This document shows, in pieces, positions 10,490 to 30,097 of a stretch of 64,000 nt of DNA. The stretch spans positions 35,754 through 99,753 of the IMG/VR virus record IMGVR_UViG_3300011113_000621; one strand, given 5' to 3'. The stretch is from a virus. The position numbers and the translations under genes were made by a program. Every line of letters begins with the position of its first letter. Positions within the stretch are counted from its first letter, which is position 1. The notes beneath the pieces were generated by a model. It saw only the letters and a list, made by a program, of their open reading frames with translations. It made no database searches and was not told the origin of the DNA.

Positions 10490-13400
10490 TTAGTTCCAGT
10501 ATCCTAGTCGCAAGGCATTTTCAAGTGCCTTGTACTCTTGGCTGTTCTTAGATATTAAATTATTTAATCGCGAGGATACAGCGTCCTTAAACGCATCATA
10601 GGTTCCCCACTTTTCAATGATCTTATCCATCTCAAAACCTTTAGGTTGGTATAAAGGATTTGAAAGATTATCTGTAATATTCTTGATTTGATGCCTATAG
10701 ATCTTTAGTAAATCTCCCGTTCCGATTTTGTTTATAAGAATAGGCATGTAGTTTTGGTATGCGTCTGACCCCGCGAAACTATCAGAGTCAATTAAAAAGT
10801 CTTCAATGCGTGTTTCATCTTTTTTAATTTCACCTAAAGTATTGTCAACTGGAAACACGCGTAATTTTCCGGTAGACTTATCAAAAGCTATCATGTAATT
10901 TCCGTCGTGACGGTCTACATTGTTTGAAAGAATATCGAATATAGACATTCTTATGATGTCCTCAGGATTGTCTAATAGTTCTACAAATCTTTGTGGATCA
11001 TACTGTAGTCTAGTTATTGTCCCGCTAGCGTCTGGTATACCGTTTCTAGCGCCTGGTCCAGCGTTAACTGCTCTACTAACCAAAGGTACATTTGACCCGG
11101 CTTCACTCATAACAACAAGATTTTGCTGATTCTTTGCAGCACGAACGTCGTGAATTCCTTGCATACCAGCGGCTCTAAAGATTATTGATGCTTCTAACTC
11201 GGTGATTCCAGCAGGAGTTTCTGAGTAGTCTGCAGCGTACTCATCGTTTTTTACGTAGAATTTTTGTCCGCTTGCAATATGTGTAACCTCGAACATACCA
11301 TATTGATCATTTACTCCAAGACCATTAAGTCTCTTCACTTCAAAACCTGCTTCTGCTATTTTTGAAGTTCCTCCACTGGCTGCGGCACTAAAATCGTCAA
11401 CAGTAAATTCTGACAACACGTTTGCAGAGTTAAACGGATCTGAGTATCCATGATCTGCACGATACTCGTTTGAAAGGCCATCACGTAGACGAAATACATC
11501 ATCGAGTGAAAGACTTCTATTCTTGTTCAGCATCTGCCTAGACACGTAATCATTTAAGGCGTTTTTAGCATCTACAGAAAGAACCGCTAGTGACCTGTTA
11601 TTTCGCAGTGCATCTTTGATTTGACTGTAGTACGGAGAAATTACTCCATCGTTTCTAAACTCGTCTGACTCTATAACAGAAAGACCTTGAGATGAAACGC
11701 TAGGGATATTCTGCTTTGACAAAACGCGTTTACGCGCATTTTTTATTTGGTTGTAGTTTATAGCTTGTATCTGTTCGCGCGCCGTGGGATTAAGATGCTT
11801 TACCCCTGACCAGCCAGTGTCCATCATTACAGTTTTACCAAGCCATTTTCCTTTTTCAGGGTCCTTTTCTGGATCCCATCCAACAAGAGCAAACTCTAAA
11901 GGTGTTGGCAGAATAGAAAGATTATAGCTACCATCATTAAGTTTGGCTCTGTCCACGCGATACTTAAGTACATCTAGCTGCACATTTTCTAAGTCTGTTC
12001 GTGCCTGGCGACGCAGTTTTTGCATAATATTTACCACGTCTGTAGAGTTAGTCCAAGTGTATCCTGTAAGTGCCCAAACAAATCCACCTTGATATTCTCC
12101 ACCGCCAGCAGCACCAACGTAAACTTTTTCTATTCCATTTGCAGCATACCAGTTTTCTACCCAGCGATTGTACGCAGATCCAAATCCTTTTTGCTTTAAT
12201 TCCTTGTTGTACAGAGCCATAAATTCTGCATAACCTGACTTAGAAACTTCAGTAACGTTACCGTCTCTGTCAAGTTTACGTTTTATTTTTATAGATCTTT
12301 TAGCTCTACCTATAGGTCTTCCATTAACATCACGTATGTCAAGAGCAATACCAAAAGATACACTTGCCTTTCCATTATCCATATCTTCTTTACTTGGATT
12401 ATTGTATGAATTTTCTAAATCAACATCAATACTAACGTCTCTTACTTTAAGAGTATAAAAGTCGCCTCCAAAAGATATACCAGAGCGGTCACCATAAGCA
12501 TCACCAATAAGTCTTTTAATTTCATCTTTTATTTCGTTTACTTCTTTAGCCGAGCCGTCTTGATCAGCAAGAGAGTACTTATAGGCCAGTTGCTCTAATA
12601 CATCAAGACTAACTCTGTCTTTTCCAGCCTTTGCAATTTCTGCGTCGCGATCTTTCCATGCCGAGAAATTTGACTGCACTGAATCTTCTCTTGTTTTTCC
12701 TTCTAAAAAGTCTGGACGAGTACTTTCATCGTTGACTCCTATAGTGTCACCTGAACGCGCAATTCTTGGAGCTGGAAGAAGTGGTCTGTCAAGACGTTGT
12801 TGTACATCAGTGGATGGCAACATTTCTTCTCGGGTAACAACAGTTGAAGCTCCGCCTGAATCAGTTGATATTGCGCGAACTTTACTTGCTGATCTTACCT
12901 GAGTCGTTCCATCATCAAACTTTATGCGCAGATATTCTGGATTATTTTGTATCGCAGTGACAGTTCCAAGCTTTCCGTCCTTGATGGCTTGAACACGCGC
13001 TCCCTTACCCACCACAACTCCGTCACGAACTATTGTTGTGTTATTAGGTGAGTATCCCGCTTCTTCTGGGCCTGGATACTGATACTGTGGTGTTACAGGC
13101 GCTGGCTCAGAAGTCTCTGTTTCATCCTCTTCTGGCTCAGAAGACGTGTCATATATGCTAGCTCGTTCCTGAGGAGTAAGATCTCTCCATCCAGCCTGGC
13201 CAGCTCCTCTTGGGTCCGAAAACCATTCAGGCGAAACGGTAACTTGTGTAATTGAACCATTACGTGCAACATAAAGGTCTTCCCACGGGTCAATGTATGC
13301 GAGTGACCCATCGGAAGGCAGGTACGAAATCACCTTAACTCCGCTTGGAAATAAGTCGTCGTCAACGTCATAAAAATCCTTAATTGCATCAATGTTTTCA

Positions 13401-16400
13401 TTAAACATATTTGCTACTTGAGCAGGCTCGGGTACTTGAGCAGGCTCGGGCGCTTCTTCAAAATTATTTGACTCGCTAAGGATACGCTCAATTACAGCGT
13501 TTGTATTTACATTTAGACGTTGAAGAGCATCACGAACAGCTTCTACTCTAACTTCATAAAGTCCTTCGTTAGAAGGAGCGTCTGGGTTAAAGTTAAGTAG
13601 TGCAGATCCAGATCCATTAACTATTGCCTTTTCAAATTGTTCCAAAAGGTCTGCCTCTTCAAACTTAGTTGCTATGTATCTTGGATTATCTGAATATCCA
13701 TTCTCATCTGGTTCTTCTGTTGTCCAATTGTATGAATTAGTATCAATGTCATAGTAGTCAGGATTCTTTTCAGTATCCACTGGTATGTTGTAGAGTAGCT
13801 CGCCTTGAGGAGCGGCATCACGCTGTTCATCAGACGCGTTAGCCGCTTTTTCCTCAGTCTCTTTAGGAGTAGAAGCTTCTTTAATTTGAGAAATTTCTTC
13901 AAATATGTCATCGATTAGTGCTTCTTCGTCTGGGTCTGGCGTCCCACCCGCTGCATCATGTAACTTGTTTAGGTTGTTGCGATTTCCGTTAACTGCGTCA
14001 TAGGCATTTGCAATAACACGGTTGGGATCTCCACCTGCTAAGAATATTGCGTTATACAAAGCTTCGGCTGGAACAAATTCATCACCTTTATTAAACTCTA
14101 GCTGCCCTGCCCCGCTGCCATTTGCTCTGCCTGCCGCAGGGGAGGGGGAATCAACAACATCATCTATTTCCTCGAGATCTAATAACTCGCCATCGTCACC
14201 AATACTTGACTCGATGATTTCATTAAAGATTGCATCGTCTTTGTCACCAATTAAAGCTTGAGTAAGCGCGACGCTTAGTTGTGGAAGTGTGTACTTAACC
14301 GCTAAGCGCTCTGGATCATCTGTAAAGTCTGTCGATTCTTCATCCACGCGACCATCTGGCTCGTAGTCGATAGTGCGTAGTTGAAATGCCCCAGCAGGAA
14401 CGTCAAAATCTCTAAAAAGTGAAGGAGTTGACGGAGTGCTAGGGCTTGGTACTTTTGGGGGTGTTCCTCCGCCTCCGTCTGGCGGAGTTGGTGATTCGTC
14501 TGGGCCTTCATCTCTTCCATCCCAAAGATCAGAAAGAAGCTCTCTATACTTTTTCTCAGCGGCGTCCATAAACGCATCTTCGTCAAAGTCAATTTCAAGC
14601 TCGTCGTCGTCTTCTAAGTCACGGCGTTCCTTGTAGGCTCCTTCTAATATATCTGAAAGTTGATTTTTTAATGAATCAACGGCAGCTTGAATAAAGTCTT
14701 CCTTATTAGCTGTTGCAGAAAAATTATTATTAAATTGATCTTGTATGTCAAAGCGCGAGTCAGCTGCATCCCACATCTGCTCGACAATGCTTTCACCGAC
14801 GTCACTTGCATCATTGTCAAGAACTTCTTCAAGTTCCTTTGACATATCGAACTCAGACTCGGCTCCGTCTACAACTGTATTAGTGATGTCTTTACCAAAG
14901 TCATCAGAGTTCGAGAATGGTCCAGTGTACCTACTCGGTGGAGTTGGTGGAACTGCACCACCACCTTCGTCGTCTTCCCACTTGGCAAGTTTACTTTCTA
15001 GCTCTTTAATCAATTCATCTACTTGCTCTTTTGCTTCTTCTATATCTCTGTCTAGTGAATTGTCCTTGTCGTCGCCAGTGTCGATTTCATCTAGCTTCTC
15101 TTTTAACTCTTCTAATGGAGATAGCGCTCGTTCAACCGCTTCGATCACGCCTAATGGCGGATTGTCTAAGTCTGTCCACGTGCCTGCTGCAGGACCATTA
15201 CCATTATCAGTGTACTCACGTGCGTCAGATAGTGGGCTGTATGCGTCGTTTAGTGCGTCCTCTAACTTAGTTGCGTCTGAACCATTTAGTTCTCCACCGT
15301 TAATAAGGTCTTGTACATTGTATAAGTTTACTGTCTCGTTTGACCAGTTTTCTACGTCGGTAACACCAGTAAATGCTGTAGGCGGTTTGTTGTCTGAGTC
15401 ATCGCCGTCTGATGAAGGAGTTGGTGGTTCGTCTGGGCCTTCGCCAGTATCGTTTCCAATTTCCATTTCTTTTTGGCGAGCGTTGTCAATAAATCCACCG
15501 CGATAGTATGGAAGTCCATCTAACTCAAAAAGTCCACTAAGGAACTCATCATTATTTTCTGCATCTAACTCATTAACATTGTCAGCAGGTATCAGATCGT
15601 TTTCATCTGTCGCACCTGTGTCTATATGGTGATACGTGCCATCTGGGAATCTGACAATTAGGCTCTGGCCATCGCCATCTGCAAAGACAACTTCTGCACC
15701 CTTAGGGATGGAAGGGTCTAATGTATTTGGATCTATACCTGGCATGTCCGGTAAAGGCTTTGCAGCATATTTTCTAAGATCTCTGCCTTCTGCACCGTCA
15801 AAGACTGCAGCGTGACGTTCTTGAGCTGACTTACTACTGTCAAGAGCAATTGCCTTAGCAGAATTGTAGTCAAACGTGGTAGGCTCTCTGTCCGGTGAGG
15901 CAGCAGACTTATCTTTAGTTCCGATCTTCTCATCAAGCATATCAATAGCTTTGCCAAGAAGATCTTTAGCCTTCTCTATACGAGGGCCGCCAGGAAATCC
16001 AGGTCTTTCAACTTCATCAAAGAAACTTTTAATGGCGCTACGCGCATTCTTACGATCATCTTGATTATTTGGAATGTCATTCTTTAAGCTGTTACCAAAT
16101 CCTACGTTAGCATCTTTTAATGCTTCTCTAGCATCATAATATCTATTTGAGGCAGCCTCATTTGGAATGTCACCACTACGTCCATGCTCGAGAACTTCAT
16201 TGTATGCCTCTTGAATAACTGCTGCAATCTCATTGTTGTCACCAGCAAATCTTGGAACTTCTCCTCCACCAATACCATCAAGCTGCTCTTTGATAGCATC
16301 AACACTGTTTTGGTGACCGAATAAGGTACTCTTAAGGAAGTTTTTATTCCAGATTTTTTCTGCGTTATTCCACTTAAATCCAAGTCTCTTTATCAACTCT

Positions 16401-17986
16401 CTTTGAGGATATGTGTTTCCAGAAAGCTTTACCTGAACGCCATCAACATTTCCTGGCTCACGGCCAGGGAAAACTCCAACTGGTATTTTCTTACTTTCTG
16501 CAGTGTAGTTTACGCCGTTAGGAAGTGCTCCTGACTCACTAACGCCTTCGGGAAGAAGTTTATCGTCAGTGCTTTCTTTTCTACGCGCCTTGTCTGGGTT
16601 TTTACGAGCGTAGTCTGCCTCAATTCTGCGAACCTGCTCGCGAGTCATATTAAGGTCTTCTGCTACTTCCTCGAGAGACTCGCCGTCCATACGTCTACTA
16701 AAAATTGATTCAGCAAGACGCTCTTGTTGCGCATCGCGAGCAGCCTGTATACCTTTTGCGTTCTCTTCGTCACCGCGGTCTTGGACTCCAACACTTTCCT
16801 TAAACTTGTCATAATCAGGCGAGTCCTTCTCTGCAAGAGATTGCGCCTCTGCCCATGATTTAACATTTCCAACGTTATCGCCAGTGTTTCCGTCTTTATC
16901 AAGACGATGAAGCGCGAAGCCAGACTCGTTTGGAATTAGCTTATAGTCATCGTCAGACATAAACGATCCATCATCTTGCTTTGTCCAACCAGAAGGAGCA
17001 TCAACTCTTGTCTTAAGAAGGTCTGCAAGATTTGGAATATTAGCAGATGATAATTCCTTGGCGGTTGGTTTACGTGCGCCTGTATCTCTTTTTATTCCAG
17101 CTCGTTTTAGTGCTTTTCCAGGAATGCGAGCTTTTATAGGTGTTGCATTTGCACTTTCAATCGAGTAAATTCCATCAGGTAACGAGTTATTTCCACGAAT
17201 TTCAACAAGACCAGCGTTTGCAACTGGCTTGCCGTTCTCTGTCGAGTAACCACGTGCGGCGTTAACGCCAACGTAAGTTCCACCAGCGCTTCCAATGTCT
17301 CCATTGGGAAGTCTAAAGTTAAAATCAATTCCACGTCCCATCTCAACCCAACGTCCCCTACGGTCACGCCACTGCAATGCAACACGAGCGCGACGGGCAG
17401 CACTTGAATTTCCTCCACCAAAACCAAATGCAGCTAATAAAGTTTTGATTGGAGACTCATCAATCTTAAAAAATAAAGGAATGGCCGATGCCAATGTGAC
17501 GCGCAAACGCGCAAATGCATGGCGACGTTGGATTGATCCTGGCTCAAGCGAGTGAGCAGTTGCAATTAAAGGACGAATTGAGTTATCAATAGATGGATCT
17601 GACGAAAGCCATTGAGCATATCTTTCTCGAGCAACGTCACTTGACGCAGTCAAATTTAATGATGATCTAGGGTGGCCAATTGGTAGTAGGTCAGTGTTAG
17701 ATGAATACTCATATGCCTTAAAGGTGTCTTGATGTGCCGTGATAAACTTTGCAACCTCGCGAAGTACACCAAGCTCACGGGACTCATTTGACAACGATGA
17801 AAGACTGGCGTTTGCGCGATTCATGACTGTAAGCGCACTACGAGGAATAACTCTACGCTCAATTGGAGCGTTCTTGTTTGCCTCTACTACAAGAGATAAA
17901 ACTTTTTCACGAAGAGATAAAGGTTTGTAGCCTTTTGGGTAGATTGCCTTACGATCTACCATCTTGCTTACTAATTCTTCGTACAT
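10490..17986 (-). CDS. Giant multidomain head-module protein (2498 aa): sigma70 region-4-like HTH, SH3-like, GNAT-like and C-terminal HipA/PI3K-PI4K-like kinase domains
   Basis: ESLEEVAEDLNMTREQVRRIE (HTH); KQKGFGSAYNRWVENWYAANGIEKVYV...GGFVWALTGY (GNAT-like); FYVK...ELEAS...FDILSNNVDRHDGNYM...PVDN (kinase-like); lies between portal and protease. Confidence 0.7.
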   Translation of the reverse strand: MYEELVSKMVDRKAIYPKGYKPLSLREKVLSLVVEANKNAPIERRVIPRSALTVMNRANASLSSLSNESRELGVLREVAKFITAHQDTFKAYEYSSNTDLLPIGHPRSSLNLTASSDVARERYAQWLSSDPSIDNSIRPLIATAHSLEPGSIQRRHAFARLRVTLASAIPLFFKIDESPIKTLLAAFGFGGGNSSAARRARVALQWRDRRGRWVEMGRGIDFNFRLPNGDIGSAGGTYVGVNAARGYSTENGKPVANAGLVEIRGNNSLPDGIYSIESANATPIKARIPGKALKRAGIKRDTGARKPTAKELSSANIPNLADLLKTRVDAPSGWTKQDDGSFMSDDDYKLIPNESGFALHRLDKDGNTGDNVGNVKSWAEAQSLAEKDSPDYDKFKESVGVQDRGDEENAKGIQAARDAQQERLAESIFSRRMDGESLEEVAEDLNMTREQVRRIEADYARKNPDKARRKESTDDKLLPEGVSESGALPNGVNYTAESKKIPVGVFPGREPGNVDGVQVKLSGNTYPQRELIKRLGFKWNNAEKIWNKNFLKSTLFGHQNSVDAIKEQLDGIGGGEVPRFAGDNNEIAAVIQEAYNEVLEHGRSGDIPNEAASNRYYDAREALKDANVGFGNSLKNDIPNNQDDRKNARSAIKSFFDEVERPGFPGGPRIEKAKDLLGKAIDMLDEKIGTKDKSAASPDREPTTFDYNSAKAIALDSSKSAQERHAAVFDGAEGRDLRKYAAKPLPDMPGIDPNTLDPSIPKGAEVVFADGDGQSLIVRFPDGTYHHIDTGATDENDLIPADNVNELDAENNDEFLSGLFELDGLPYYRGGFIDNARQKEMEIGNDTGEGPDEPPTPSSDGDDSDNKPPTAFTGVTDVENWSNETVNLYNVQDLINGGELNGSDATKLEDALNDAYSPLSDAREYTDNGNGPAAGTWTDLDNPPLGVIEAVERALSPLEELKEKLDEIDTGDDKDNSLDRDIEEAKEQVDELIKELESKLAKWEDDEGGGAVPPTPPSRYTGPFSNSDDFGKDITNTVVDGAESEFDMSKELEEVLDNDASDVGESIVEQMWDAADSRFDIQDQFNNNFSATANKEDFIQAAVDSLKNQLSDILEGAYKERRDLEDDDELEIDFDEDAFMDAAEKKYRELLSDLWDGRDEGPDESPTPPDGGGGTPPKVPSPSTPSTPSLFRDFDVPAGAFQLRTIDYEPDGRVDEESTDFTDDPERLAVKYTLPQLSVALTQALIGDKDDAIFNEIIESSIGDDGELLDLEEIDDVVDSPSPAAGRANGSGAGQLEFNKGDEFVPAEALYNAIFLAGGDPNRVIANAYDAVNGNRNNLNKLHDAAGGTPDPDEEALIDDIFEEISQIKEASTPKETEEKAANASDEQRDAAPQGELLYNIPVDTEKNPDYYDIDTNSYNWTTEEPDENGYSDNPRYIATKFEEADLLEQFEKAIVNGSGSALLNFNPDAPSNEGLYEVRVEAVRDALQRLNVNTNAVIERILSESNNFEEAPEPAQVPEPAQVANMFNENIDAIKDFYDVDDDLFPSGVKVISYLPSDGSLAYIDPWEDLYVARNGSITQVTVSPEWFSDPRGAGQAGWRDLTPQERASIYDTSSEPEEDETETSEPAPVTPQYQYPGPEEAGYSPNNTTIVRDGVVVGKGARVQAIKDGKLGTVTAIQNNPEYLRIKFDDGTTQVRSASKVRAISTDSGGASTVVTREEMLPSTDVQQRLDRPLLPAPRIARSGDTIGVNDESTRPDFLEGKTREDSVQSNFSAWKDRDAEIAKAGKDRVSLDVLEQLAYKYSLADQDGSAKEVNEIKDEIKRLIGDAYGDRSGISFGGDFYTLKVRDVSIDVDLENSYNNPSKEDMDNGKASVSFGIALDIRDVNGRPIGRAKRSIKIKRKLDRDGNVTEVSKSGYAEFMALYNKELKQKGFGSAYNRWVENWYAANGIEKVYVGAAGGGEYQGGFVWALTGYTWTNSTDVVNIMQKLRRQARTDLENVQLDVLKYRVDRAKLNDGSYNLSILPTPLEFALVGWDPEKDPEKGKWLGKTVMMDTGWSGVKHLNPTAREQIQAINYNQIKNARKRVLSKQNIPSVSSQGLSVIESDEFRNDGVISPYYSQIKDALRNNRSLAVLSVDAKNALNDYVSRQMLNKNRSLSLDDVFRLRDGLSNEYRADHGYSDPFNSANVLSEFTVDDFSAAASGGTSKIAEAGFEVKRLNGLGVNDQYGMFEVTHIASGQKFYVKNDEYAADYSETPAGITELEASIIFRAAGMQGIHDVRAAKNQQNLVVMSEAGSNVPLVSRAVNAGPGARNGIPDASGTITRLQYDPQRFVELLDNPEDIIRMSIFDILSNNVDRHDGNYMIAFDKSTGKLRVFPVDNTLGEIKKDETRIEDFLIDSDSFAGSDAYQNYMPILINKIGTGDLLKIYRHQIKNITDNLSNPLYQPKGFEMDKIIEKWGTYDAFKDAVSSRLNNLISKNSQEYKALENALRLGYWN
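13416..13450 (-). repeat. 18-bp-period tandem repeat (PEPAQV x2)
   Basis: acttgagcaggctcggg occurs twice with period 18 in a linker of the giant protein. Confidence 0.7.
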
Positions 17987-19308
17987 TATCTATTTCGCCC
18001 TTTCGGGAGTAGGTCTGCATCATTTGAAGCATAAAGTTTAGTTGCAAGTTGATATGCTCGATCAAACGGAACGTCTCCGTCACGGACACCACGTAACCAT
18101 GCACCGCGTAATGCTGGAATGATCTCGTAGCCAAGACCTGAGTACTCTGCCATCGAGTAAATTGCATGCTCTGGAGAACCATATTCATCAAGTGACTTTA
18201 ATGCAACCTGCATAAGCTCATGCTGCATCATTGAAGCCTCTGCTCTTGAGGACTTTGGATGTGCCTTTGGCAAGAGATCGTTGTCCTGCTTGTAATTTGG
18301 ATTTGCAGGAGACCCTGAGCGCAACAGCTTTAGAAACGCGTTAACGCGAGCCATTGCCCACTGATCACGAGTCTTGCCTGGTCTATGGCTAGATGAAAAT
18401 GCGCCTGACCCTCTACGATACACTGCCTTTAACATTGGTAACGTTGCCTTGCGTCCTGGCTTTGCGTTCTTGTTATGCTCTACTACCTTTTTACGAAGTG
18501 AATTTTCTGTTTTTTGTGAGAATACAATTTTCTTTCCACCTGAGGCTGATCCCTTTGGATTTTTCTTTGATCCGTAGATGCGATCCTTCTTTGGAGCTTT
18601 GCGTGATGCGGCAAACTCTTGAGCTGCAGATGAGTCCTTAGGAACACAGTTAGGAACCATTCTGCCATTTTTCTTTTTCATTCCAACTTGAACGTATCCG
18701 TCCCAACATGGACCAGCGGCTGCAGTTACGACGCCATCTGGGATAAGTGCAAAGCGGCAGTAACCTTCAGGCTCTACCTGTGCATCAATGATCTTGCACT
18801 CACTGCCACCAACATATAAAATGCAGTTGGCACACTTAACACCAATGTCCTTAATATCATTTTTCTCCGCAGGTTCATATCCTGCCCAAACGCCCGTGTC
18901 ATCAGAGTTAAACTTTCCGTATTTTTGAGTAATTTCAATAAGCGCGTCGGCAAGATCTTGTTCCTCGGCAACGACAATTCCTGCAGCTAAGAGAGCGTCC
19001 TCCTGCTCGATTTGAAATGTCTCATACATCTCATCGTGCGCGTGATCATCATAGTCTTCACTGTCAACGTTAATTGAGTTTATGCGCATTGGGCACATGC
19101 AGGTAATCGGGCAAGGGCACTGACTTGATGGGCAGTTCTCGCAAGAGCAGGAATTTTCGTAACAGTAAGGGCAGTCATTTACTTCTGCTTCTACTGGAAG
19201 ATTTGCTGGCTCTTCTTGCTTGTGTGACTTACCATTTATCTTTGAGTATAGATCCGCCATGCGTAGCAGAAGCTCAGCTGCTTCTTGCTTGGTGTTATCG
19301 TCATGCAT
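17986..19308 (-). CDS. Cys-rich multidomain head accessory protein
   Basis: Metallothionein-like CPYCYENSCSCENCPSSQCPCPITCMCP; HiPIP-like KCANC...C...VEPEGYC; GPCWDGYVQVGMKKKNGRMVPNCVP module; KAVYRRGSGAF...QWAMARVNAFL module. Confidence 0.65.
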   Translation of the reverse strand: MHDDNTKQEAAELLLRMADLYSKINGKSHKQEEPANLPVEAEVNDCPYCYENSCSCENCPSSQCPCPITCMCPMRINSINVDSEDYDDHAHDEMYETFQIEQEDALLAAGIVVAEEQDLADALIEITQKYGKFNSDDTGVWAGYEPAEKNDIKDIGVKCANCILYVGGSECKIIDAQVEPEGYCRFALIPDGVVTAAAGPCWDGYVQVGMKKKNGRMVPNCVPKDSSAAQEFAASRKAPKKDRIYGSKKNPKGSASGGKKIVFSQKTENSLRKKVVEHNKNAKPGRKATLPMLKAVYRRGSGAFSSSHRPGKTRDQWAMARVNAFLKLLRSGSPANPNYKQDNDLLPKAHPKSSRAEASMMQHELMQVALKSLDEYGSPEHAIYSMAEYSGLGYEIIPALRGAWLRGVRDGDVPFDRAYQLATKLYASNDADLLPKGRNR

Positions 19309-20983
19309 TTGGAGGTACCTCGTCTTGGGGAGTTACTTGCTCTGGTGTTGCTGGTGGTTGTTGTGCGGCCTGCTCTAAGATTTGTTCAATCTCTGGTGGA
19401 ACTGGCGCTACGGACTGTGCCTGTTGAACCTCGCGAAGCTTATTCATAAGTTCAGGTGATATTGCACCTATCATCTGCTCGGTAAGTTCTGGTGATATTG
19501 AACCCTTTTCTATCAAAAGACGAAGTGCTAGTTCCTTTGACTCTGGAGCATCAGAGCTTGAGAAACCGTGAGCGCGTCTCCAGGCATCAAATGAAACTGC
19601 CATGCGATCAAATCCAGAGTCTGCGTCTGCAGCTCTATCATTACGTGTTGCTACTTGAGATGGGTCATACCAGAGACAGACGCGCTTAACGTCTTCCTCT
19701 CTAAAACCTGCAGAGAGAAGCGCAGGACGAAGATACATAACTGTCAACGCGTCAACGATGATAAGCATCAACGGTTCAATGTGTGCCTTGTAAAGCGCCT
19801 CGTCAATTTGTAGCGCGTTCGAGTATTTAACGTTGGCTAAACCTGTAACAACATCCTTTGGCACGTCTAGACCTTGAAGGATACGCTCTAACACGCGGTC
19901 AGCGCGTTGTGCAAGCGATGGGTCAAACGATCTTTCAAACTTAAATTGCTTGATTCTGTCGCCAAGCTCTGCAGGACCACGAATGATAAGAGGAACAACT
20001 GCAGATGCAGAATCCTCGTCACGAATCGGAGTCGTCATTGCATCAATGAGTTGATCTTCAAACTCGTCGGCTGCCTCCTCGGCAGTCATGCCAGGACTTA
20101 ACTCGTTCTCATCATCATAAGGATAGTCTGGGTCTGGACTTGCTGCAACTGAAAGTCCGTCTGGCAAATAAAGTGCACCAGCGTTGAGTCGCGAGCGCGC
20201 GGTTGCTCTAAACGTGCGATTTAGAAGTAGAAGCTCTGCGCATAGATCTAAGAGACCGCGCATGCTCGAATCTGCTTCCTCGGAGTAACGTGGGTGAGCT
20301 CTCCAAATTCGTCCAACAAAACTTGTGTTGGGAAGCTTTAATGCGGCAGCTGCGTTTTTGCCGCCTGACGTGACAACGTCACGACGTGGAATTATTAGAT
20401 ACTGGTTGCGTGCATCAACTTGAAGCTCGTCTGTTGAGCGAATATCCCAGCTTTCAGGAACGCCCGTTCCTTTACGCTCAGGGAATTGCACAAGATAGCA
20501 CTCACCTGAAACCGATAGGTTTAGGGCTGCATCTCGTAATAGTCCAGCCTGTCCGCCGTATGCAGAGTCTAATCGCGCTAACGCACGCTCTGCAGCAGCA
20601 GCTAATCTCTGGTCAACAACATCGCTGTTGTTAACAGGGACAGGCGACTCCGCGGGATTATCAACCGCGGCTGCATAAAGACGAATACGTGAAACAACTG
20701 ATGCAACAAGGTTAAATGCATACTTAACTTCGCCAATTGCATCATAGTACTCCCAGGCTTCACTCTGCCAATCAGAGGATCCGCCTGTTCTACGTTGCTT
20801 AAATCTTTCAACCTCGCCCTTATCATTTATGGCGATTTGTACTGCCGCTGCAGTTATAGGTCGCGGAGCAGAGTAAGGTAGTGATTGCGCATATGAGATA
20901 TCTGAAATGACAACTGGAGTTGTTACATTACGTTGTGGTCTTTGATTGCGAGGAGGAAATTCCTCGCGACGAAAAATTGCCAC
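19301..20983 (-). CDS. Portal protein
   Basis: WQSEAWEYYDAIGEVKYA...RIWRAHPR...ADSSMR...RSRLNAG motifs of cluster-B-like actinophage portals; 560 aa, just downstream of the terminase. Confidence 0.85.
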   Translation of the reverse strand: MAIFRREEFPPRNQRPQRNVTTPVVISDISYAQSLPYSAPRPITAAAVQIAINDKGEVERFKQRRTGGSSDWQSEAWEYYDAIGEVKYAFNLVASVVSRIRLYAAAVDNPAESPVPVNNSDVVDQRLAAAAERALARLDSAYGGQAGLLRDAALNLSVSGECYLVQFPERKGTGVPESWDIRSTDELQVDARNQYLIIPRRDVVTSGGKNAAAALKLPNTSFVGRIWRAHPRYSEEADSSMRGLLDLCAELLLLNRTFRATARSRLNAGALYLPDGLSVAASPDPDYPYDDENELSPGMTAEEAADEFEDQLIDAMTTPIRDEDSASAVVPLIIRGPAELGDRIKQFKFERSFDPSLAQRADRVLERILQGLDVPKDVVTGLANVKYSNALQIDEALYKAHIEPLMLIIVDALTVMYLRPALLSAGFREEDVKRVCLWYDPSQVATRNDRAADADSGFDRMAVSFDAWRRAHGFSSSDAPESKELALRLLIEKGSISPELTEQMIGAISPELMNKLREVQQAQSVAPVPPEIEQILEQAAQQPPATPEQVTPQDEVPPNA

Positions 20984-21021
20984 TTAAACTCCTGTCATTA
21001 AGATAACGGAACGCATTAACA

Positions 21022-22198: not shown

Positions 22199-22256
22199 GG
22201 AGTTACCTTAACACGCGCTCGTCAAAGCGTGTACAAACTGCTCGGTGTTTTGTACT

Positions 22257-23663
22257 TTATCGTACACGAAACCCGCCTTTTCCTCCGCGAAAGGAGGGAA
22301 GCTTACGATGAGCAAGAGACTTTGCAGTTATATGTCCGCCAAGGAATCCTGCAGGAGGCTTAATGAGAAGCGCTGTTAATGCGTGAACAAGTGCATCAAC
22401 ACGGTCTGGAGATCTTGATGTTTCACCAGGAATCCAACTTGTCATCTGACTTTCAAGCTCAGGAAGATAGTTTATGTGATGAACACGATTTTGCTCGTAG
22501 GCAAGGGTCACAGGCTCCGCGCGTAGTGCCTTGCCATACTTTGAGTGAACCTCTAATACCTTTACGTTTGGATCAATTGTATTTATTGCATTGCGAACTA
22601 AGGCGCCACCTTGATTTACTTCCGCTACGACAGGGCAACCCCACTTGCGTGCCATTTGCACAACCTTGTTTGCCCAAATATCAGGAGAACCATGAACTGT
22701 CGCATCCTCAAGGATCCAGGAGTTGCGCTTATATAAGTCGCGCTCGCCTGTTGATGCGCAAACAACAATTCCACACTCGTCGCGAGGATTCTCTGCAACC
22801 GATGGGTCAACGCCAATTACACGTAGTGGAGCTCCAATTGGAAGTTGCGTTTCACGACCGCGATCTATAAGTTCAATTGTCCAGAGAGCTCCTTCAATAT
22901 CTGAAAGCATCTCTCCGTAGAGTTCCTGTTGTGCAAGACGCGTTCCTTCATATACACCCATAATTGCACTTATATATGACTCAGATAGGTTTCCACGGTT
23001 GTCCATGGTTGAGCCTTTGGTAATAATCACCTTGTCTGGCTGCTTCTTACTTTCATTTATAAGTTGATATAGAAGTGGAACTCGCTTAGGTGTCGTCGTG
23101 ATTAAGATCTTTGGCTTTAGTCCAAGACGTGTACCAACGCGTAAGTTATCAAACGCGGTCATACCCGCCGCGTCGGGAGTTTGACGCCAGGCGGCAACCT
23201 CATCACCCCAGGCATGCGTAAATTGAGGACCGCGAAGCGAGTCAGGCTCATCGGCTGTAAAGAGAGTTGCGGTGTTTCCATTAGGCCAAGTAAGACGACG
23301 CTTTGAAGGTTCGTAGTGTGGGCGCTCGCTTGGTGGCGTGATATTTATGATTCCTGATTCGCCTTCTACGATAACGTCACGAACGTCTGCGGCGGTACGC
23401 GCAACGAGCGCAAAGCGAAGTTGTCCTTTATTCGTGTACCTTGCTTGTTCTCTTACCCACTCTGCGGCAAGTCTTGTCTTACCAAAACCGCGACCTGCAA
23501 GTACAAGCCAGATGTTCCAGTCATCGCCTGGCGGAGCCTGCTGCTCAGGACGGCCCCAAAACGACCAGTCCCAAGGAAGGATCTCTTGATCAAGTCCACT
23601 TAATATCGCATCACGTTCCTCCTCGGAAAGTATTGCGATTTGCTCGGCGATGCTTTTGCCCAT
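22257..23663 (-). CDS. terL: Terminase large subunit
   Basis: Walker A LAGRGFGKT, LRGPQF...WGDE Walker B, nuclease VIGVDPS and SPDRVDALVHA; start chosen at ATG 23663, 6 nt after a TACTAT -10-like box. Confidence 0.95.
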   Translation of the reverse strand: MGKSIAEQIAILSEEERDAILSGLDQEILPWDWSFWGRPEQQAPPGDDWNIWLVLAGRGFGKTRLAAEWVREQARYTNKGQLRFALVARTAADVRDVIVEGESGIINITPPSERPHYEPSKRRLTWPNGNTATLFTADEPDSLRGPQFTHAWGDEVAAWRQTPDAAGMTAFDNLRVGTRLGLKPKILITTTPKRVPLLYQLINESKKQPDKVIITKGSTMDNRGNLSESYISAIMGVYEGTRLAQQELYGEMLSDIEGALWTIELIDRGRETQLPIGAPLRVIGVDPSVAENPRDECGIVVCASTGERDLYKRNSWILEDATVHGSPDIWANKVVQMARKWGCPVVAEVNQGGALVRNAINTIDPNVKVLEVHSKYGKALRAEPVTLAYEQNRVHHINYLPELESQMTSWIPGETSRSPDRVDALVHALTALLIKPPAGFLGGHITAKSLAHRKLPSFRGGKGGFRVR

Positions 23664-23928
23664 GTACAAATAGTACAATAAGATGCGCTCGTTGATTTGT
23701 GTACAAAAGCGCAGATGCAGTACCTTAAGGTTAATTGCCTTGGACGTGAGAAAGCGCCCTGCATTACGGGAGCGCTTTCCTAAAGTGTCTCCAACATTTT
23801 TTACAATTCTTCATATTTTTCTGTTTTTTGTCAAGAGCATAAGGCATTGCCTCTACAAAAAATTATTTTGTAGATTGTTGCAAAGGTATGGTTGCTTGCT
23901 TATTAGTTATTTGTCTTAGAAATACTTC

Positions 23929-23958
23929 AGGCTAGCACCTTTGTAAGATGCTAGCCTG
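23929..23958 (-). terminator. Stem-loop terminator
   Basis: AGGCTAGCA...TGCTAGCCT inverted repeat after the 23976 ORF. Confidence 0.55.
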
Positions 23959-23975
23959 TGACTAGTAGATGTATG

Positions 23976-24488: not shown

Positions 24489-24514
24489 GGATTTAATATA
24501 ATCCTATCTCGTGA

Positions 24515-25078: not shown

Positions 25079-25080
25079 CG

Positions 25081-25260
25081 CTAGTTCGCCTCCTTCTTAG
25101 GTTAGGGATGGGATAACTCAATGCAGCCACCGCATTAAGCTTCTTGCTACCCTGCAGCTTCTCAGATTTATGTCTGTCCTCTACCACTTGCACAGGGTTG
25201 GAGATATTAAGGGGCGTTAATAAAATAAACGTACCTCCGTCTCTCCGTATTGAACTTACT
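25081..25260 (-). promoter_or_regulatory. Long structured 5' leader of the transglycosylase gene
   Basis: About 180 nt ORF-free; TGGTATAGT -10-like box at 25266-25274; stems GGAGA/TCTCC, ACCCTGT/GCAGGGT, GCTTAATGC/GCATTGAGT. Confidence 0.45.
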
Positions 25261-25310
25261 GGTAAACTATACCATAATGAAAGTAAAACTTTACCTAAAA
25301 GTAGGCAGTT

Positions 25311-25601
25311 TTACTTATTTTTATTCTTGGCCTTTTCTTCCTCGGCCTTTAGCATTTGAGCCTCGATTTTAAGAAGAAGAGGAGTAAATGCTCTCACTAG
25401 TAATTCAACGTCTCCTTGAGATTTTGCCTCGTGACGTTTCATACGACGGACACCTTTTTGCGCCGCGGTAATGAGTGGGCTGTCATGTACTATTCCGTAG
25501 AGTGGCACTATGACCACCTCCTCTCGTTCTGATGGGTTAATTATATCATCAGAAGGGGGGTCTTGTAAACCCCCCTCGAGAGGAGGCTGGTACCAACTCA
25601 T
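25311..25601 (-). CDS. Hypothetical protein
   Basis: 96-aa ORF co-oriented with its neighbours. Confidence 0.55.
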   Translation of the reverse strand: MSWYQPPLEGGLQDPPSDDIINPSEREEVVIVPLYGIVHDSPLITAAQKGVRRMKRHEAKSQGDVELLVRAFTPLLLKIEAQMLKAEEEKAKNKNK

Positions 25602-25614
25602 AGGTAAGCCTACC

Positions 25615-25767
25615 TTAGCCCCTTTGGGACAGGCAGGCCATTGCGACCGAGGTTAACCCTAGGGCTAGGACCAACGTGCCTTTAGAAGGGTCCAGAAGGG
25701 CAGTAAGAACCGCCAGAACAGAGCTGGCGGCTGATACCACGGCTGGCCACACGATATTGCGCAACAC
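25615..25767 (-). CDS. Small two-helix membrane protein
   Basis: Manual ORF MLRNIVWPAVVSAASSVLAVLTALLDPSKGTLVLALGLTSVAMACLSQRG fills the intergenic gap. Confidence 0.55.
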   Translation of the reverse strand: MLRNIVWPAVVSAASSVLAVLTALLDPSKGTLVLALGLTSVAMACLSQRG

Positions 25768-25779
25768 GGGGTCTAGACC

Positions 25780-25959
25780 TTACTTGCTCTTTCGGGTCTT
25801 ACCCTTAAGGCGATCTGAGGTGTTACGGATTGGGGTGCCTGAGTCTGCGATGAGCTTACGAGCCTTACCGTATGTAATGCCAAGCTCCTGGGCTACCTCA
25901 ACTACGGACTTGCCAGCTGTATAAAGTGCAGCTGCCTGTTGTGATGACGCTGTTGTCAT
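25780..25959 (-). CDS. Small HTH DNA-binding protein
   Basis: ALYTAGKSVVEVAQELGITYGKARKLIADSG; start at ATG 25959 after an AAAGGAAA RBS. Confidence 0.7.
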   Translation of the reverse strand: MTTASSQQAAALYTAGKSVVEVAQELGITYGKARKLIADSGTPIRNTSDRLKGKTRKSK

Positions 25960-26075
25960 TTGTTTTCCTTTTCTCGTTCTCGTTTTTTCCTGTTTGTTTT
26001 TATTACCTTCGAGTGATAGTAATAAGACTCGCGACCGATCGATCAGATCGCGTGCCTCGTTGAGCAGACTACTGC

Positions 26076-26528
26076 TCAAGATTTATTTTTCTTTTCTGGT
26101 TTTGGAGGAACCTTCCCATGCTTATTACATAGCATCTTTCCTCCCCATGCGCTACGAGGTTTGACGTTTAGATCACAGTCAGTTCCATATCCTGCCGCAT
26201 AGCAACGAACTCTGTCCTTGACAAGAATCGCATTGTTAATGGCAGCAATTGCGCGTTTGACAACTGAGTTGTTAATGACAAATCCATTATCCTTATGACA
26301 GCTCCAACACAGGTATTCATTTCTTCGATGTGCTGGATCTCTAAGTGCGTTGGGCGCACCGCAGTTATCGCAATGTTGAATGTTCTTTCGAGTGAATACG
26401 ATGTTGCGATAATCTGATGCACAAATCAACTTGTCATCAAGTTCATAGACGAGTACGTTTGTGTCACCGCACGAGGAACAGGTGTCATAAACGTAAATCT
26501 GTTCTCGTTGAACAGTACCTCTTGTCAT
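26076..26528 (-). CDS. Multi-Cys zinc-finger protein
   Basis: Several CxxC pairs; RBS GGAGG. Confidence 0.65.
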   Translation of the reverse strand: MTRGTVQREQIYVYDTCSSCGDTNVLVYELDDKLICASDYRNIVFTRKNIQHCDNCGAPNALRDPAHRRNEYLCWSCHKDNGFVINNSVVKRAIAAINNAILVKDRVRCYAAGYGTDCDLNVKPRSAWGGKMLCNKHGKVPPKPEKKNKS

Positions 26529-26584
26529 TGATCCTCCGTAATCGTCCTTAGGAAAACTATAATCCTTTTATCTGAACTTGTAAA

Positions 26585-26854
26585 CTATTCCTTAGGGTGA
26601 ACTACTCCAAGCAAGGGAGTTGCCGCAGCCTTGACGAATTGCTTTTCAGCCATGTGGTCATAGGTAGATGCGATTAGTATTGAAGGAAGACAGAAGGCAA
26701 TGAGGCCAGTCATTGCTGCAAAGAAATGAGTCCAGGTTCCTCCAATTGAAAGTGCAATCATTGAGATTGCCCATATTCCGGAGAGTACCTTAAGTGAGAA
26801 GGAGATGCGACGGTATTGAAAACCGCGTCTGCGAATTTCTTTTACTGATTGCAT
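26585..26854 (-). CDS. Membrane protein
   Basis: Two hydrophobic segments; preceded by the GACGAAAGGAC leader. Confidence 0.65.
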   Translation of the reverse strand: MQSVKEIRRRGFQYRRISFSLKVLSGIWAISMIALSIGGTWTHFFAAMTGLIAFCLPSILIASTYDHMAEKQFVKAAATPLLGVVHPKE

Positions 26855-26889
26855 GGAGAAGTCCTTTCGTCATTCTGTAAGGTATTTCC

Positions 26890-27045
26890 TTACAGTGTTG
26901 CTATTCCTATGATTGTGCATAGTGCAATTGCAATAATTGCTGGAAGTGGAGCTGCATCTGGCAAGTTGTCACTTAGCCAATCAGTGATGTTTCCAAAGAA
27001 ATCTACTGTTGAATCCATTGCGTCTCCAAAGAAGTCCATAATCAT
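26890..27045 (-). CDS. Small membrane protein
   Basis: Manual ORF MIMDFFGDAMDSTVDFFGNITDWLSDNLPDAAPLPAIIAIALCTIIGIATL with its own promoter motif and leader. Confidence 0.65.
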   Translation of the reverse strand: MIMDFFGDAMDSTVDFFGNITDWLSDNLPDAAPLPAIIAIALCTIIGIATL

Positions 27046-27117
27046 TTTAGTCCCTTTCGTCGTTACCCAGGTTCCTGGGCATAGGATAATTATATCAGGA
27101 AGGTCCCAGAAATTGGG

Positions 27118-27672
27118 TTAAAACCCAAATTTCTTTCTACATTCCGGTCCAAGCTGGAGGCTACGGCTGGTTGGGTCTGTGAGCTCCGCGCCGCATGACC
27201 CACAGCAAGAGTAGTGGACGCCAAAGAGCTTGGCGTACCCATATTGGTTGGACTTGATGACTCCAACAAGGTCAAGGACGTCCTGAACAGAAAGCTTGTG
27301 GCGTGTAAACCCACCAAGGCTTCCGGTGAGTCGGCGCATGTAAAGAGTACTCATAAACTCACGTACCTCAACGAAAAGGAGGTCGCCATGAATCTCGAAA
27401 TCGAGGTCAAGGTGACTTAGGTCCGCAACAGGAATGGCGTACTTAGACTTTTGAATGGTAGCCAATGGGACTTGGGTTGGGTTTACGCGAGGAGCCTTAG
27501 GAAGCTTAGGGAGGGCTAGCAGCCGCTTGATTAGATCTGATGCTTGAAGCTTATTTAACATCGGTAGGTTTTCGCGAAGCTCATCAGCCTCACCTGTTTC
27601 AATATCACGTTCTTTGAGAAGGCCAAGGATAAAATCAACCTGCTTCTCTGATGGTCCGATTAGTGTCGTCAT
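27118..27672 (-). CDS. DUF6011-like zinc-binding protein
   Basis: C-terminal CCGSCGAELTDPTSRSLQLGPEC; N-terminal PSEKQVDFI. Confidence 0.7.
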   Translation of the reverse strand: MTTLIGPSEKQVDFILGLLKERDIETGEADELRENLPMLNKLQASDLIKRLLALPKLPKAPRVNPTQVPLATIQKSKYAIPVADLSHLDLDFEIHGDLLFVEVREFMSTLYMRRLTGSLGGFTRHKLSVQDVLDLVGVIKSNQYGYAKLFGVHYSCCGSCGAELTDPTSRSLQLGPECRKKFGF

Positions 27673-27719
27673 TTTGGCTCCTTTCCTGAGCTTGGTACTA
27701 TTATATCAGGTAGGTCAGG

Positions 27720-27846
27720 AAAATAAAGGAAGCCAGGCGGGAATGGGACCACCTGGCTTCTTGGAAAGGGTGTCTACAACCTGAACGGATTGGAGGTACG
27801 TCCAGGGAGACCCTTGGCATAAGGTATGAACGGACCTTTACCAAGT
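27720..27846 (-). ncRNA. Candidate small RNA (three hairpins) between promoter variant and terminator
   Basis: TGATATAAT at 27853-27861, no ORF, hairpins CTTGGTAAAGGT/ACCTTATGCCAAG, CCTGGACG/CGTTCAGG, AAGCCAGG/CCTGGCTT followed by a U-rich tail. Confidence 0.5.
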
Positions 27847-27858
27847 AGGACAATTATA

Positions 27859-28791
27859 TCATGCCCAGGAGAATAAACGAACCTCTTCATAGACCGTACC
27901 TACGACCTGACTCCAAATCTGTGGCGTGTGGTCAAACGGCTGATACCCACCGGCTCCTCCGATTAGGACTCGGCCTTGAGAATAGGTGTTGGCAATTTGG
28001 CCTACGACCTTAGCCGCATACTCATATCCAGGGTAATCGAAGTTAAGTGTTGACAACGGATCTGAAATGTGAGCATCAGCTCCAGTAGCTAACAGCACAA
28101 CATCTGGTTGGATCTTGTGTGACAGCTCTGCAACTTGATCTACCGCATCACGAAATACGTCATCACCGGAGCCTGGATCTAACGCCCAGTTATAAATACC
28201 GAACGAAGGTATATGCCCATCAAGACCTGTGCCTGGAAAAATTGCAGAGTCATGAATCGAGCATGTAATGATATCTCTTGAGCTGGCAAGTAGATTCTCA
28301 ACGCCATCGCCATGATGCGCATCCCAGTCGATGTACATAACCTTCATGCCATTACGATGAAATTCCTTTGCAGCCCAAGCCATGTCGTTGAAAACACAAA
28401 ATCCGGAGCTGTGATTACGTTGAGCATGGTGCTTAGCTCCCTGAGGATTAAAGCCAACCTTCAAGTCGCCCGCAAGCATCTTTTCCGTAAGACGAACTGT
28501 TCCGGCAAACATGTGTAATGCAACCTTACCCTTGTGGGTATCATCCGGTCTCCATTCACCGCAATGCCCAAGGTCTAAAACCTTTGAAACATATTCCTTA
28601 TCGTGAATTGACTCTACGAGAGCTCTGTCCGTATCAAGGATGTCTGGTTTTATGACTACGACGTCGTGGTCTTCCTGCAACATCTGCGTTGCATACTTTG
28701 CACGAACTGGATTAGTTGGATGCTCGAAATCTGAGCTACCAAGTTTCCAGTCAAGATACACGTCATCGTATGAGATGTGTAACTTAGTCAT
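27859..28791 (-). CDS. Histone deacetylase family (AcuC-like) Zn-dependent deacetylase
   Basis: GAKHHA, SGFCVFND, IDWDAHHGDG, SIH..IFPGTG, GADAH..DPL, GGAGGY motifs. Confidence 0.92.
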   Translation of the reverse strand: MTKLHISYDDVYLDWKLGSSDFEHPTNPVRAKYATQMLQEDHDVVVIKPDILDTDRALVESIHDKEYVSKVLDLGHCGEWRPDDTHKGKVALHMFAGTVRLTEKMLAGDLKVGFNPQGAKHHAQRNHSSGFCVFNDMAWAAKEFHRNGMKVMYIDWDAHHGDGVENLLASSRDIITCSIHDSAIFPGTGLDGHIPSFGIYNWALDPGSGDDVFRDAVDQVAELSHKIQPDVVLLATGADAHISDPLSTLNFDYPGYEYAAKVVGQIANTYSQGRVLIGGAGGYQPFDHTPQIWSQVVGTVYEEVRLFSWA

Positions 28792-29302
28792 TTAACTTCA
28801 ACTCCCTTAGATATTTCTCAAAGCTTGGATTTATCAAGACAGCGCTTGAGCGCTTTGTCCGCATTAACTCAATAGCTTGCTCAGCTGTATAGCCTTCAAG
28901 CATGAGAACAATTCCCATAGTTAAGCCAGATCTATTGATTCCAGCTTGACACCTAACAAGAACATTCTTGCCAGACTTCCACTGTTCGTGTGCGTATTTA
29001 GCCGCACGCATTAGTGCAGCCTCATCAAAGCTGGAGTTATCATCATAAAATCCGTAGCGAACTTCCTCGACAAACCAGTCAACAGGTCGTGCCCATGCAT
29101 AGAGCGTGACGACTACATCGAACTCTTTTTGTGTTATCTCACGAGTACCGTAAGGGTTTGCCACATAGTCAATCGTGTCAAAATCATCTGTACCACCAAG
29201 CCAAAGCCCTGAAAGGATCTCGCTCCATAGGGGAAAGTTCCAGTCAATTTCATGCTGCGGCGCAGCACCAAATTCCTCTGTACTATAAGTTGCCATTGTC
29301 AT
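28784..29302 (-). CDS. Dual-specificity/tyrosine protein phosphatase
   Basis: CX5R loop VLVRCQAGINRSG, EILSGLWLG, INPSF; start placed after the leader RBS. Confidence 0.88.
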   Translation of the reverse strand: MTMATYSTEEFGAAPQHEIDWNFPLWSEILSGLWLGGTDDFDTIDYVANPYGTREITQKEFDVVVTLYAWARPVDWFVEEVRYGFYDDNSSFDEAALMRAAKYAHEQWKSGKNVLVRCQAGINRSGLTMGIVLMLEGYTAEQAIELMRTKRSSAVLINPSFEKYLRELKLND

Positions 29303-29392
29303 GTGTCCTTTCGTATGGGTGGGCACCCTAGCAACCACTTGTTAGGGTTCCCACGGGTCTATTATATCAGGTTTGTAAACAACTCTAAAACA

Positions 29393-30031: not shown

Positions 30032-30097
30032 AAACCTCTCCCTAAAACCCTGGTCACCTGGGGACAAATGTATCCCAGGTGAGAGGGCTACGTCTAA

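Follow-up and report, generated by a model that had tools for sequence, protein, structure and literature searches.

A giant phage head-region protein with GNAT-like and kinase domains and its one-sided association with a deacetylase/phosphatase gene pair

Toxin-like enzyme domains are common in phage head-region proteins. Among the polyvalent proteins that phages and conjugative elements encode, which are defined by 2-15 distinct domains per polypeptide, both GNATs and kinases are on the domain list, the GNATs often in company with ADP-ribosyltransferases (Iyer, Burroughs, Anand, de Souza and Aravind, 2017; PMC5512222). The kinases described there are either truncated Ser/Thr/Tyr-type enzymes of Verrucomicrobia/Bacteroidetes phages or zeta-toxin kinases; the text mentions neither "phosphatase" nor "deacetylase" and describes no partner enzymes that remove a modification (PMC5512222). 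MuF polymorphic toxins combine a head-associated protein and a variable C-terminal enzyme with a phage enzyme reversing the toxin product (Jamet et al., 2017, PMC5576092; PMC10083569). In detail, the MuF-fused toxin Apk2 is neutralized by Aph1, a variably present enzyme which destroys the Apk2 product, and ADP-ribosylhydrolase genes adjoin the MuF toxin Bxa (PMC10083569). Here, we analyzed a 64,000-nt stretch (the window) of the IMG/VR viral record IMGVR_UViG_3300011113_000621, in which a gene of the head region encodes a giant protein of 2498 amino acids (aa) ending with a GNAT-like acyltransferase domain and an atypical kinase domain, and a separate gene pair encodes a CX5R phosphatase and an HDAC-family deacetylase. 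In the following, the first two are called writers and the latter two erasers. Unless a locus is named, coordinates are positions within the window, and the evidence comes from sequence comparison and predicted structure.

Alt of T4, the kinase Gp0.7 of T7 and the GNAT Rac of phiKMV modify host proteins when infection begins (PMC7552054), an action also proposed here for the two writers. Gp0.7 and Rac are made after entry and are not carried in the head. We know of no matching erasers for Alt, Gp0.7 or Rac. A modifier paired with a remover of the same mark is found in the toxin-antitoxin pair DarT-DarG and in the Legionella effector/metaeffector pairs DrrA-SidD and AnkX-Lem3, and a kinase-kinase-phosphatase system of Pf phages is reportedly a further case for comparison. 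To our knowledge, HDAC-family enzymes and CX5R phosphatases have no assigned role in phages.

The central result of our survey is that the link between writers and erasers is one-sided: the erasers occur mostly in phages with the writers, but the writers often occur without the erasers. This is the pattern expected of optional accessories to the writers. With a probability of roughly 50% we assume that the erasers match the head-associated writers and serve as their enzymatic antidotes or timers. A first-pass annotation of the window had proposed these four domains as a possible writer/eraser set and had named missing catalytic residues as a point at which the idea would fail. All four domain calls hold in profile searches, an AlphaFold model, Foldseek and fold matches, and the catalytic residues are intact.

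The C-terminus of the giant protein has no DNA or protein BLAST match among 50,697 cultured phage records, and therefore profile methods were needed; a sequence search against solved structures gave noise alone. A HMMER search of the last 719 aa against 1.84 billion representative proteins found 330 relatives. About 20 of these span all 719 aa, some within giant proteins and some in proteins as short as about 520-860 aa, and many others match only the first part (query residues ~100-290), often in multiple copies per giant protein. The AlphaFold model of this region, built on 52 homologues, is confident and compact (pLDDT 93, pTM 0.88), and the helical linker between both domains is kept in the approximately 20 homologues that span the entire cassette. 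Residues 403-719 of the model have a bilobal kinase fold and were matched by VIA-align to CotH (Z 12.1, 258 aligned residues), PI4KIIalpha (11.5), MavQ (10.8), CtkA (10.5) and HipA (10.2), with Fam20C, HipT and actin-fragmin kinase as further matches. Foldseek returned PI3K catalytic domains and CtkA with a probability of 1.00. The only Pfam signal in this region is a weak match to PI3_PI4_kinase (aa 2346-2382, E 0.007). The ATP-binding lysine (K2246), the helix-C glutamate (E2263), the catalytic loop (D2358-R-H-x-x-N2363, D-R-H-D-G-N in the window) and the metal-binding aspartate (D2381) are kept in 17-22 homologues. As these residues are conserved, the kinase looks active, and the fold comparison would fit a protein as well as a lipid as substrate. 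Unlike the kinases described in polyvalent proteins, it is of the CotH/PI3-4K/HipA-like type and fused with a GNAT-like domain in one cassette.

For the GNAT-like domain, model residues ~14-290 match NatD (Z 7.4, 152 aligned residues), PA3270 (7.2), TacT2 (6.8) and several other acetyltransferases; these scores are middling yet consistently point to GNATs, and the model has the alpha/beta fold of this superfamily. The superfamily motif A (Q/R-x-x-G-x-G/A), which binds the coenzyme A pyrophosphate, is present as K-Q-K-G-F-G-S-A. The family shows a motif-A-like consensus (Q/K-G-x-G-F/I-A/G; Q/R-G-x-G-F/I-A/G over 33 homologues). GG(Y/F)xWA comes next and does not vary, and the family also has an extension at the C-terminus (PTPxE...W.GK...W.GVK); G1934, W1971, A1972 and W2059 are invariant in the family alignment (A2). 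Six of the 33 homologues match Acetyltransf_1 weakly at motif A (best E 1.7e-4), and the family profile yields weak matches to solved GNATs at the same motif. We accept the domain as a GNAT-like acyltransferase, less firmly than the kinase. The first-pass span of 12050-12240 covers the motif-A core, but the full domain is larger (Table 1). The domain belongs to phrog_25452; two family members also carry an ADP-ribosyltransferase domain (ADPrib_exo_Tox), which is another likeness to polyvalent proteins, and one carries a minor-capsid domain.

Pfam finds on the giant protein only the weak kinase match and a weak helix-turn-helix (HTH)-like match. Its N-terminal part (aa 23-398) shares 31% identity with the 3289-aa giant protein of DSL-LC01, a metagenome-assembled Actinomycetia phage from Dishui Lake (PMC10611076), which is the closest named relative of this uncultured phage (72-79% identity of the major head protein). 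The N-terminal domain is matched by tblastn in the Microbacterium phages Zooman, Cece, Big4, Pumpernickel and A3Wally and has no match in Pfam, PHROG or the protein Atlas. Via this conserved part, the giant protein is probably located in the head. The DSL-LC01 orthologue shares aa 23-398 and ~1194-1343 alone, and a profile search found neither the GNAT-like nor the kinase domain in it. Judged from this comparison, and from the presence of the GNAT-kinase cassette in proteins down to about 520-990 aa and in further giant proteins, this C-terminal part is exchangeable cargo. The giant protein is similar to polyvalent proteins: it is a very large multidomain protein encoded together with virion genes, and it combines several distinct domains, among them presumed protein-modifying enzymes of the conflict type, in one polypeptide. 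A variable C-terminal domain on a conserved N-terminal part, as seen against the DSL-LC01 orthologue, is also a hallmark of MuF toxins. However, Pfam and PHROGs profiles detected no MuF (SPP1 gp7-like) or head-morphogenesis match in the giant protein, and a very divergent MuF fold could escape them. The head-morphogenesis-type PHROG matches fall instead on the neighboring 1584-aa protein, which is probably a protease/MuF-type fusion, so that a MuF-like function may reside there rather than in the giant one.

Elsewhere among phages, the GNAT-like domain forms the end of the gene next after portal, in one case fused behind a MuF-type head-morphogenesis domain. Cultured carriers are CP-51, JL, Shanette, Jera, Lucjan and R7M, and the proteins are annotated as hypothetical, as minor head or morphogenesis protein or as capsid maturation protease. 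Structure matches among viral proteins are in line with this, and some of the matched proteins, from uncultured or haloarchaeal tailed viruses, carry PI3K/PI4K annotations. This widespread position next to the portal and the head-related annotations would fit an explanation in which both C-terminal domains serve head assembly or DNA packaging within the particle, with phage proteins or packaged polyamines as targets, instead of being injected as effectors, and the early enzymes are unrelated. We regard this as very improbable: the cassette is missing in close relatives with the same head genes, which fits an accessory conflict function better than assembly, and the link to HDAC and phosphatase is left unexplained.

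The assignment of the erasers is based on strong profile matches. The deacetylase matches PF00850 with E 6e-54 (183.8 bits, cut-off 27.9) and aligns with the solved HDAC6, HDAH and HDAC8; the His-His dyad (H121, H122), the Asp/His/Asp zinc ligands (D157, H159, D239) and the catalytic tyrosine (Y283) are invariant in 56 distinct homologues. The phosphatase matches DSPc (PF00782; E 3e-10, 40.3 bits, cut-off 33.5) and phrog_10650 (1e-18), aligns with solved archaeal and DUSP22-type phosphatases, and C118, R124 and the general acid D87 are invariant in 50 distinct homologues. The overlap of both genes, already recognized in the first-pass annotation, measures 8 nt, and the phosphatase gene lies directly upstream of the HDAC gene in 78 of 80 related contigs, the other two being cut at the contig end. 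Phosphatase and HDAC are a fixed gene pair. The -10 region in front of it is one copy of the 12-nt motif CTGATATAATAG, which occurs 27 times in the window (4.5 copies expected), nearly always on the minus strand and between 27 and 45 kb. A terminator-like hairpin closes the unit and the next promoter motif follows at 27698-27709. We infer that the unit would be read early and from one promoter.

To score which of the four domains are present, we used profile A2 for the GNAT-like domain, A3 for the kinase, PF00850 for the HDAC and PF00782 for the phosphatase; related loci were found with the narrower alignments A4 and A5. All four domains are present in 13 related records that span both regions (the contig of the window, G002, G005-G007, G009-G015 and G022). 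The combination of GNAT-like domain and HDAC without kinase and phosphatase was found in two related lineages, G019/G021 and G020, the latter of which has terminal repeats and a 2283-aa giant protein with the GNAT-like domain at its end, as well as in the unrelated cultured Microbacterium phage Magritte, where the C-terminus of gp17 matches A2 (hhalign 88%, E 3e-6) and gp204 is the HDAC. In the close relative DSL-LC01 all four domains are missing, and the syntenic slot after its homologue of the 199-aa gene (Table 1) holds a WhiB gene in place of the eraser unit. Zooman has no GNAT-like domain, kinase or dual-specificity (DSP) phosphatase by profile and is absent from the HDAC tblastn matches. 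Seven kinase-anchored records (G024-G030) are fragments that end before the expected eraser position, and therefore their lack of HDAC and phosphatase carries no information; G008, G016-G018 and G023 are likewise uninformative.

To count independent events, the distribution was compared with phylogenies of the major head protein and the terminase. The backbone of both single-gene trees was not resolved and only the concatenated tree gave a usable approximately unbiased (AU) test, which rejected a single clade of all phages with four domains (p 0.021). Consequently, the kinase/phosphatase state requires two concordant changes, and the GNAT/HDAC state requires one change on this tree. Given the weak backbone, and because G019 joins G020 in the HDAC tree, we count one to two events in the related group. 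An independent-pairs test had too few pairs for significance.

Additional evidence comes from a second HDAC clade, akin to gp202 of Rhodococcus phage E3 and separated from the window-type clade by very long branches. G073, G074 and G075 have a co-oriented GNAT-like gene (402, 590 or 972 aa) immediately behind the HDAC gene. G074 also has a gene for a CX5R phosphatase (HCHAGMSRS) that overlaps the beginning of the HDAC gene, which results in the order phosphatase, HDAC, GNAT-like, and this contig alone has a kinase match as well (E 5e-12). In G075, both an upstream phosphatase and a kinase are missing; the lack of the kinase is not firm because the contig is 46% complete. The GNAT-like domain is nearly always present in HDAC-bearing phages. 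Among these phages GNAT appears to track HDAC and kinase appears to track phosphatase, in two deeply divergent HDAC clades.

The close neighborhood of co-oriented HDAC and GNAT-like genes in G073-G075 could also be explained by one pathway on a shared non-protein substrate, in which the enzymes would work together and not in opposition. The HDAC might, for example, deacetylate a polyamine, an amino sugar or a cell-envelope component which is re-acylated by the GNAT-like enzyme, and kinase and phosphatase might act on a lipid or small molecule. The HDAC family does include acetylpolyamine amidohydrolases, the lipid kinases PI4KIIalpha and MavQ are among the top fold matches of the kinase, and actinobacteria possess phosphatidylinositol. 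We nevertheless consider such a pathway unlikely, as the P-loop of the phosphatase (CQAGINRS) is of the protein dual-specificity type and the protein kinases CotH, CtkA and HipA score as well as the lipid kinases. Furthermore, the two GNAT families described for polyvalent proteins fall in the protein-modifying RimI-like clade (PMC5512222), an argument that would apply if the domain of the window belongs to one of them.

Several observations speak against a pairing of writers and erasers. HDAC was found in 0 of 41 other GNAT-like-bearing viral records of at least 30 kb, and in 0 of the 14 among them that are at least 90% complete. Four genomes have a related kinase domain and no DSP phosphatase: in the complete G031, G050 and G051 a distant kinase adjoins the GNAT-like gene, and in Pumpernickel a related kinase forms the C-terminal end of gp82 (hhalign 95%, E 2e-8); in this phage the profile search also found no GNAT-like domain, and the HDAC tblastn matches do not include it. 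Conversely, many mycobacteriophages carry a phosphatase of this family by itself, and phages with the phosphatase alone include Wildcat, Rey, Yvonnetastic and NiceHouse. Phage E3 and G072 (37 kb, complete) possess an HDAC but no GNAT-like domain. The number of independent concordant events is low, about 2-4, with a weak tree backbone and mosaic phage genomes, the GNAT-like fold scores are just middling, and the erasers are located 10-17 kb from the writers in the window. In addition, we infer virion content, expression and substrates of writers and erasers from sequence. Profile searches may miss divergent or non-homologous erasers, and many contigs are fragmentary. The first-pass annotation had regarded independent distribution of writers and erasers as decisive against the set, and such independence indeed exists, but in one direction only. 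What stands of the proposed set is the fixed eraser pair and the match of GNAT with HDAC and of kinase with phosphatase in two clades; the writers are widespread without erasers.

It is therefore necessary to weigh whether writers and erasers are functionally independent and co-occur due to shared descent and hosts. The erasers would then be early host-takeover or counter-defence enzymes that strip host marks set by actinobacterial Ser/Thr/Tyr kinase signalling, lysine acetylation, kinase- or acetyltransferase-type toxins or abortive-infection systems, and the head writers would hit unrelated targets. An action of the erasers against host toxin-type defences had already been named as an alternative in the first-pass annotation. 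The actinophages with the phosphatase and without this kinase, the common writers without erasers, the HDAC alone in E3 and G072 and the few independent events are all in line with independence. It does not predict, however, the adjacency of HDAC and GNAT-like genes in the second HDAC clade, the appearance of the kinase exactly where the phosphatase appears in both clades, and the joint absence of all four domains at two unlinked loci in DSL-LC01. Hence, we rate independence as a serious but rather unlikely explanation.

If the erasers do serve the writers, we favor the following mechanism. The giant protein would be a phage polyvalent protein with an exchangeable C-terminal cassette of two protein-modifying writers, and the phosphatase/HDAC unit would supply the matching erasers, with the HDAC undoing acylation by the GNAT-like domain and the CX5R phosphatase undoing phosphorylation by the kinase. 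The host RNA polymerase probably transcribes the eraser unit from the early promoter. The erasers might stop a brief wave of modification set off by injected writers, or protect the infected cell against writers that are newly made and still to be packaged, or both. A more specific version is a self-limiting circuit with two channels, in which injected head GNAT and kinase mark host proteins in the first minutes, and deacetylase and phosphatase of the first host-transcribed operon switch these marks off; such a circuit is possible, but we regard it as doubtful. If true, it would represent a viral "pulse generator" of writer/eraser pairs that are gained and lost as matched modules, and provide the first defined role for phage HDAC-family enzymes.

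In our best reading, the erasers can be understood by analogy as a variant of the enzymatic immunity of MuF toxins. This likeness extends to other phages, in which one protein joins a MuF-type and the GNAT-like domain or, as in G073-G075, the HDAC gene adjoins the GNAT-like gene. In contrast to MuF toxins, the giant protein has no detected MuF domain, two writers would face two erasers, and the erasers of the window lie in a separate, presumably early unit and not directly downstream. Moreover, the marks would be acyl and phosphate groups on presumed proteins instead of (p)ppApp or ADP-ribose as for Apk2 and Bxa. As in DarT-DarG and the Legionella pairs, a delivered or toxic modifier would be combined with an enzyme that removes the same mark, for self-protection or for a timed pulse, but those pairs are experimentally shown and usually adjacent, whereas the pairing proposed here comes from comparative genomics. 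The survey thus ties head-protein enzyme domains to phage HDACs and CX5R phosphatases as a concrete and testable pairing, of which partial versions exist in the cultured Microbacterium phages Magritte (GNAT-like domain and HDAC) and Pumpernickel (kinase alone). If the pairing is true, enzymatic immunity for phage-delivered effectors would not be limited to (p)ppApp and ADP-ribose but would also cover acylation and phosphorylation of proteins as reversible marks, and phage evolution would have modular writer/eraser sets among its units.

The source contig comes from an uncultured actinobacterial phage of a lake and has a length of 99.7 kb and an estimated completeness of 72%. On the minus strand the gene order is large terminase, portal, an open reading frame (ORF) of 440 aa, the giant ORF, an ORF of 316 aa, the 1584-aa protein, major head protein and major tail protein (Table 1). 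A giant gene is located in the corresponding slot in DSL-LC01 (3289 aa), Zooman (gp70, 1764 aa), Pumpernickel (gp82, 2235 aa) and Magritte (gp17, 1991 aa), and this portal-to-head position is kept across five phage lineages. MuF toxins typically have a small immunity gene directly downstream; the 316-aa ORF found in this place has no match in Pfam, PHROGs or NCBIfam.

Table 1. Positions of the writer domains, the eraser unit and neighboring features in the window.
Feature	Position	Strand	Remarks
Giant head-region (polyvalent-type) protein gene, 2498 aa	10490..17986	-	ORF and translation
GNAT-like acyltransferase domain, aa ~1840-2066	11789..12469	-	motif A KQKGFGSA
Atypical protein-kinase-like domain, aa 2182-2498	10493..11443	-	CotH/PI3-4K/HipA/Fam20 kind
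Kinase catalytic loop DRHDGN	10898-10915	-	
Helical linker between GNAT-like and kinase domains, aa ~2067-2181	11444..11788	-	high-confidence helices in AlphaFold model
N-terminal conserved domain, aa 1-400	16787..17986	-	common to giant proteins of related phages
Second DSL-LC01-conserved segment, aa ~1194-1343	13958..14407	-	BLASTP 34% identity, E 9e-17
CX5R dual-specificity-type phosphatase gene	28784..29302	-	alternative GTG start at 29338
Phosphatase P-loop RCQAGINRS	28931-28951	-	
HDAC-family (zinc) deacetylase gene	27859..28791	-	PF00850
Sigma-70-type promoter, extended -10	29361..29389	-	TTTAGA-17-TGnTATAAT; promoter scan
Terminator-like hairpin closing the unit	27729..27760	-	12-bp GC-rich stem, then T-rich tail
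tRNA-Gly (GCC)	29393-29468	-	sole tRNA in the window; directly before the promoter of the unit
199-aa gene	29468-30067	-	just upstream of tRNA-Gly and eraser unit; kept throughout the phage group
Gene after HDAC	27118-27672	-	DUF6011; kept in relatives
Large terminase gene	22257-23678	-	
Portal gene	19301-20983	-	
440-aa gene between portal and giant gene	17986-19308	-	DUF5824; kept in relatives
316-aa ORF downstream of giant gene	9528-10478	-	
1584-aa protein gene	4777-9531	-	PHROG matches annotated portal, head maturation protease, virion structural protein

The genes around the eraser unit gave few additional hints. A scan with NCBIfam provided no useful names and no match for the 199-aa gene, whose DSL-LC01 homologue is annotated as HslV-type ATP-dependent protease subunit. 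A homologue of the phosphatase adjoins the RtcB RNA ligase in mycobacteriophage Rey and is located near a tRNA nucleotidyltransferase in NiceHouse. These neighbors and the tRNA-Gly of the window would fit an RNA role of the phosphatase, for instance with RNA ends as substrate; we consider it of low likelihood since phosphatase and kinase vary together. NiceHouse was also inspected for a phosphatase/HDAC pair, as its relative E3 has an HDAC, and carries the phosphatase alone.

Some further observations concern giant proteins and the GNAT-like family. The segment aa 431-457 of the giant protein (16616-16696, minus strand) has a weak match to sigma-70 region 4/HTH-like domains (Pfam E 7.5e-4) and to the sigma factor family phrog_351 (E 0.004), which hints at a DNA- or RNA-polymerase-binding element. 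Three more distant phages with all four domains (G009, G010 and G011) have a giant ORF of 3838-4130 aa, a terminase about 60 kb away from the head genes and a genome order unlike that of the window. A giant ORF of 2603 aa in G075 (L341:5006-12817) contains another GNAT-like match, weaker than the first (E 3e-10), and thus one phage may hold a shorter HDAC-adjacent copy as well as a giant-protein copy. Finally, in the complete 59.6-kb phage G039 the gene following the GNAT-like gene (L317:3209-7363) encodes a 1384-aa protein with PHROG matches of the RNA-ligase/protease-like type and a C-terminal match to ADP-ribosyltransferase toxins, which represents another head module with stacked effectors.

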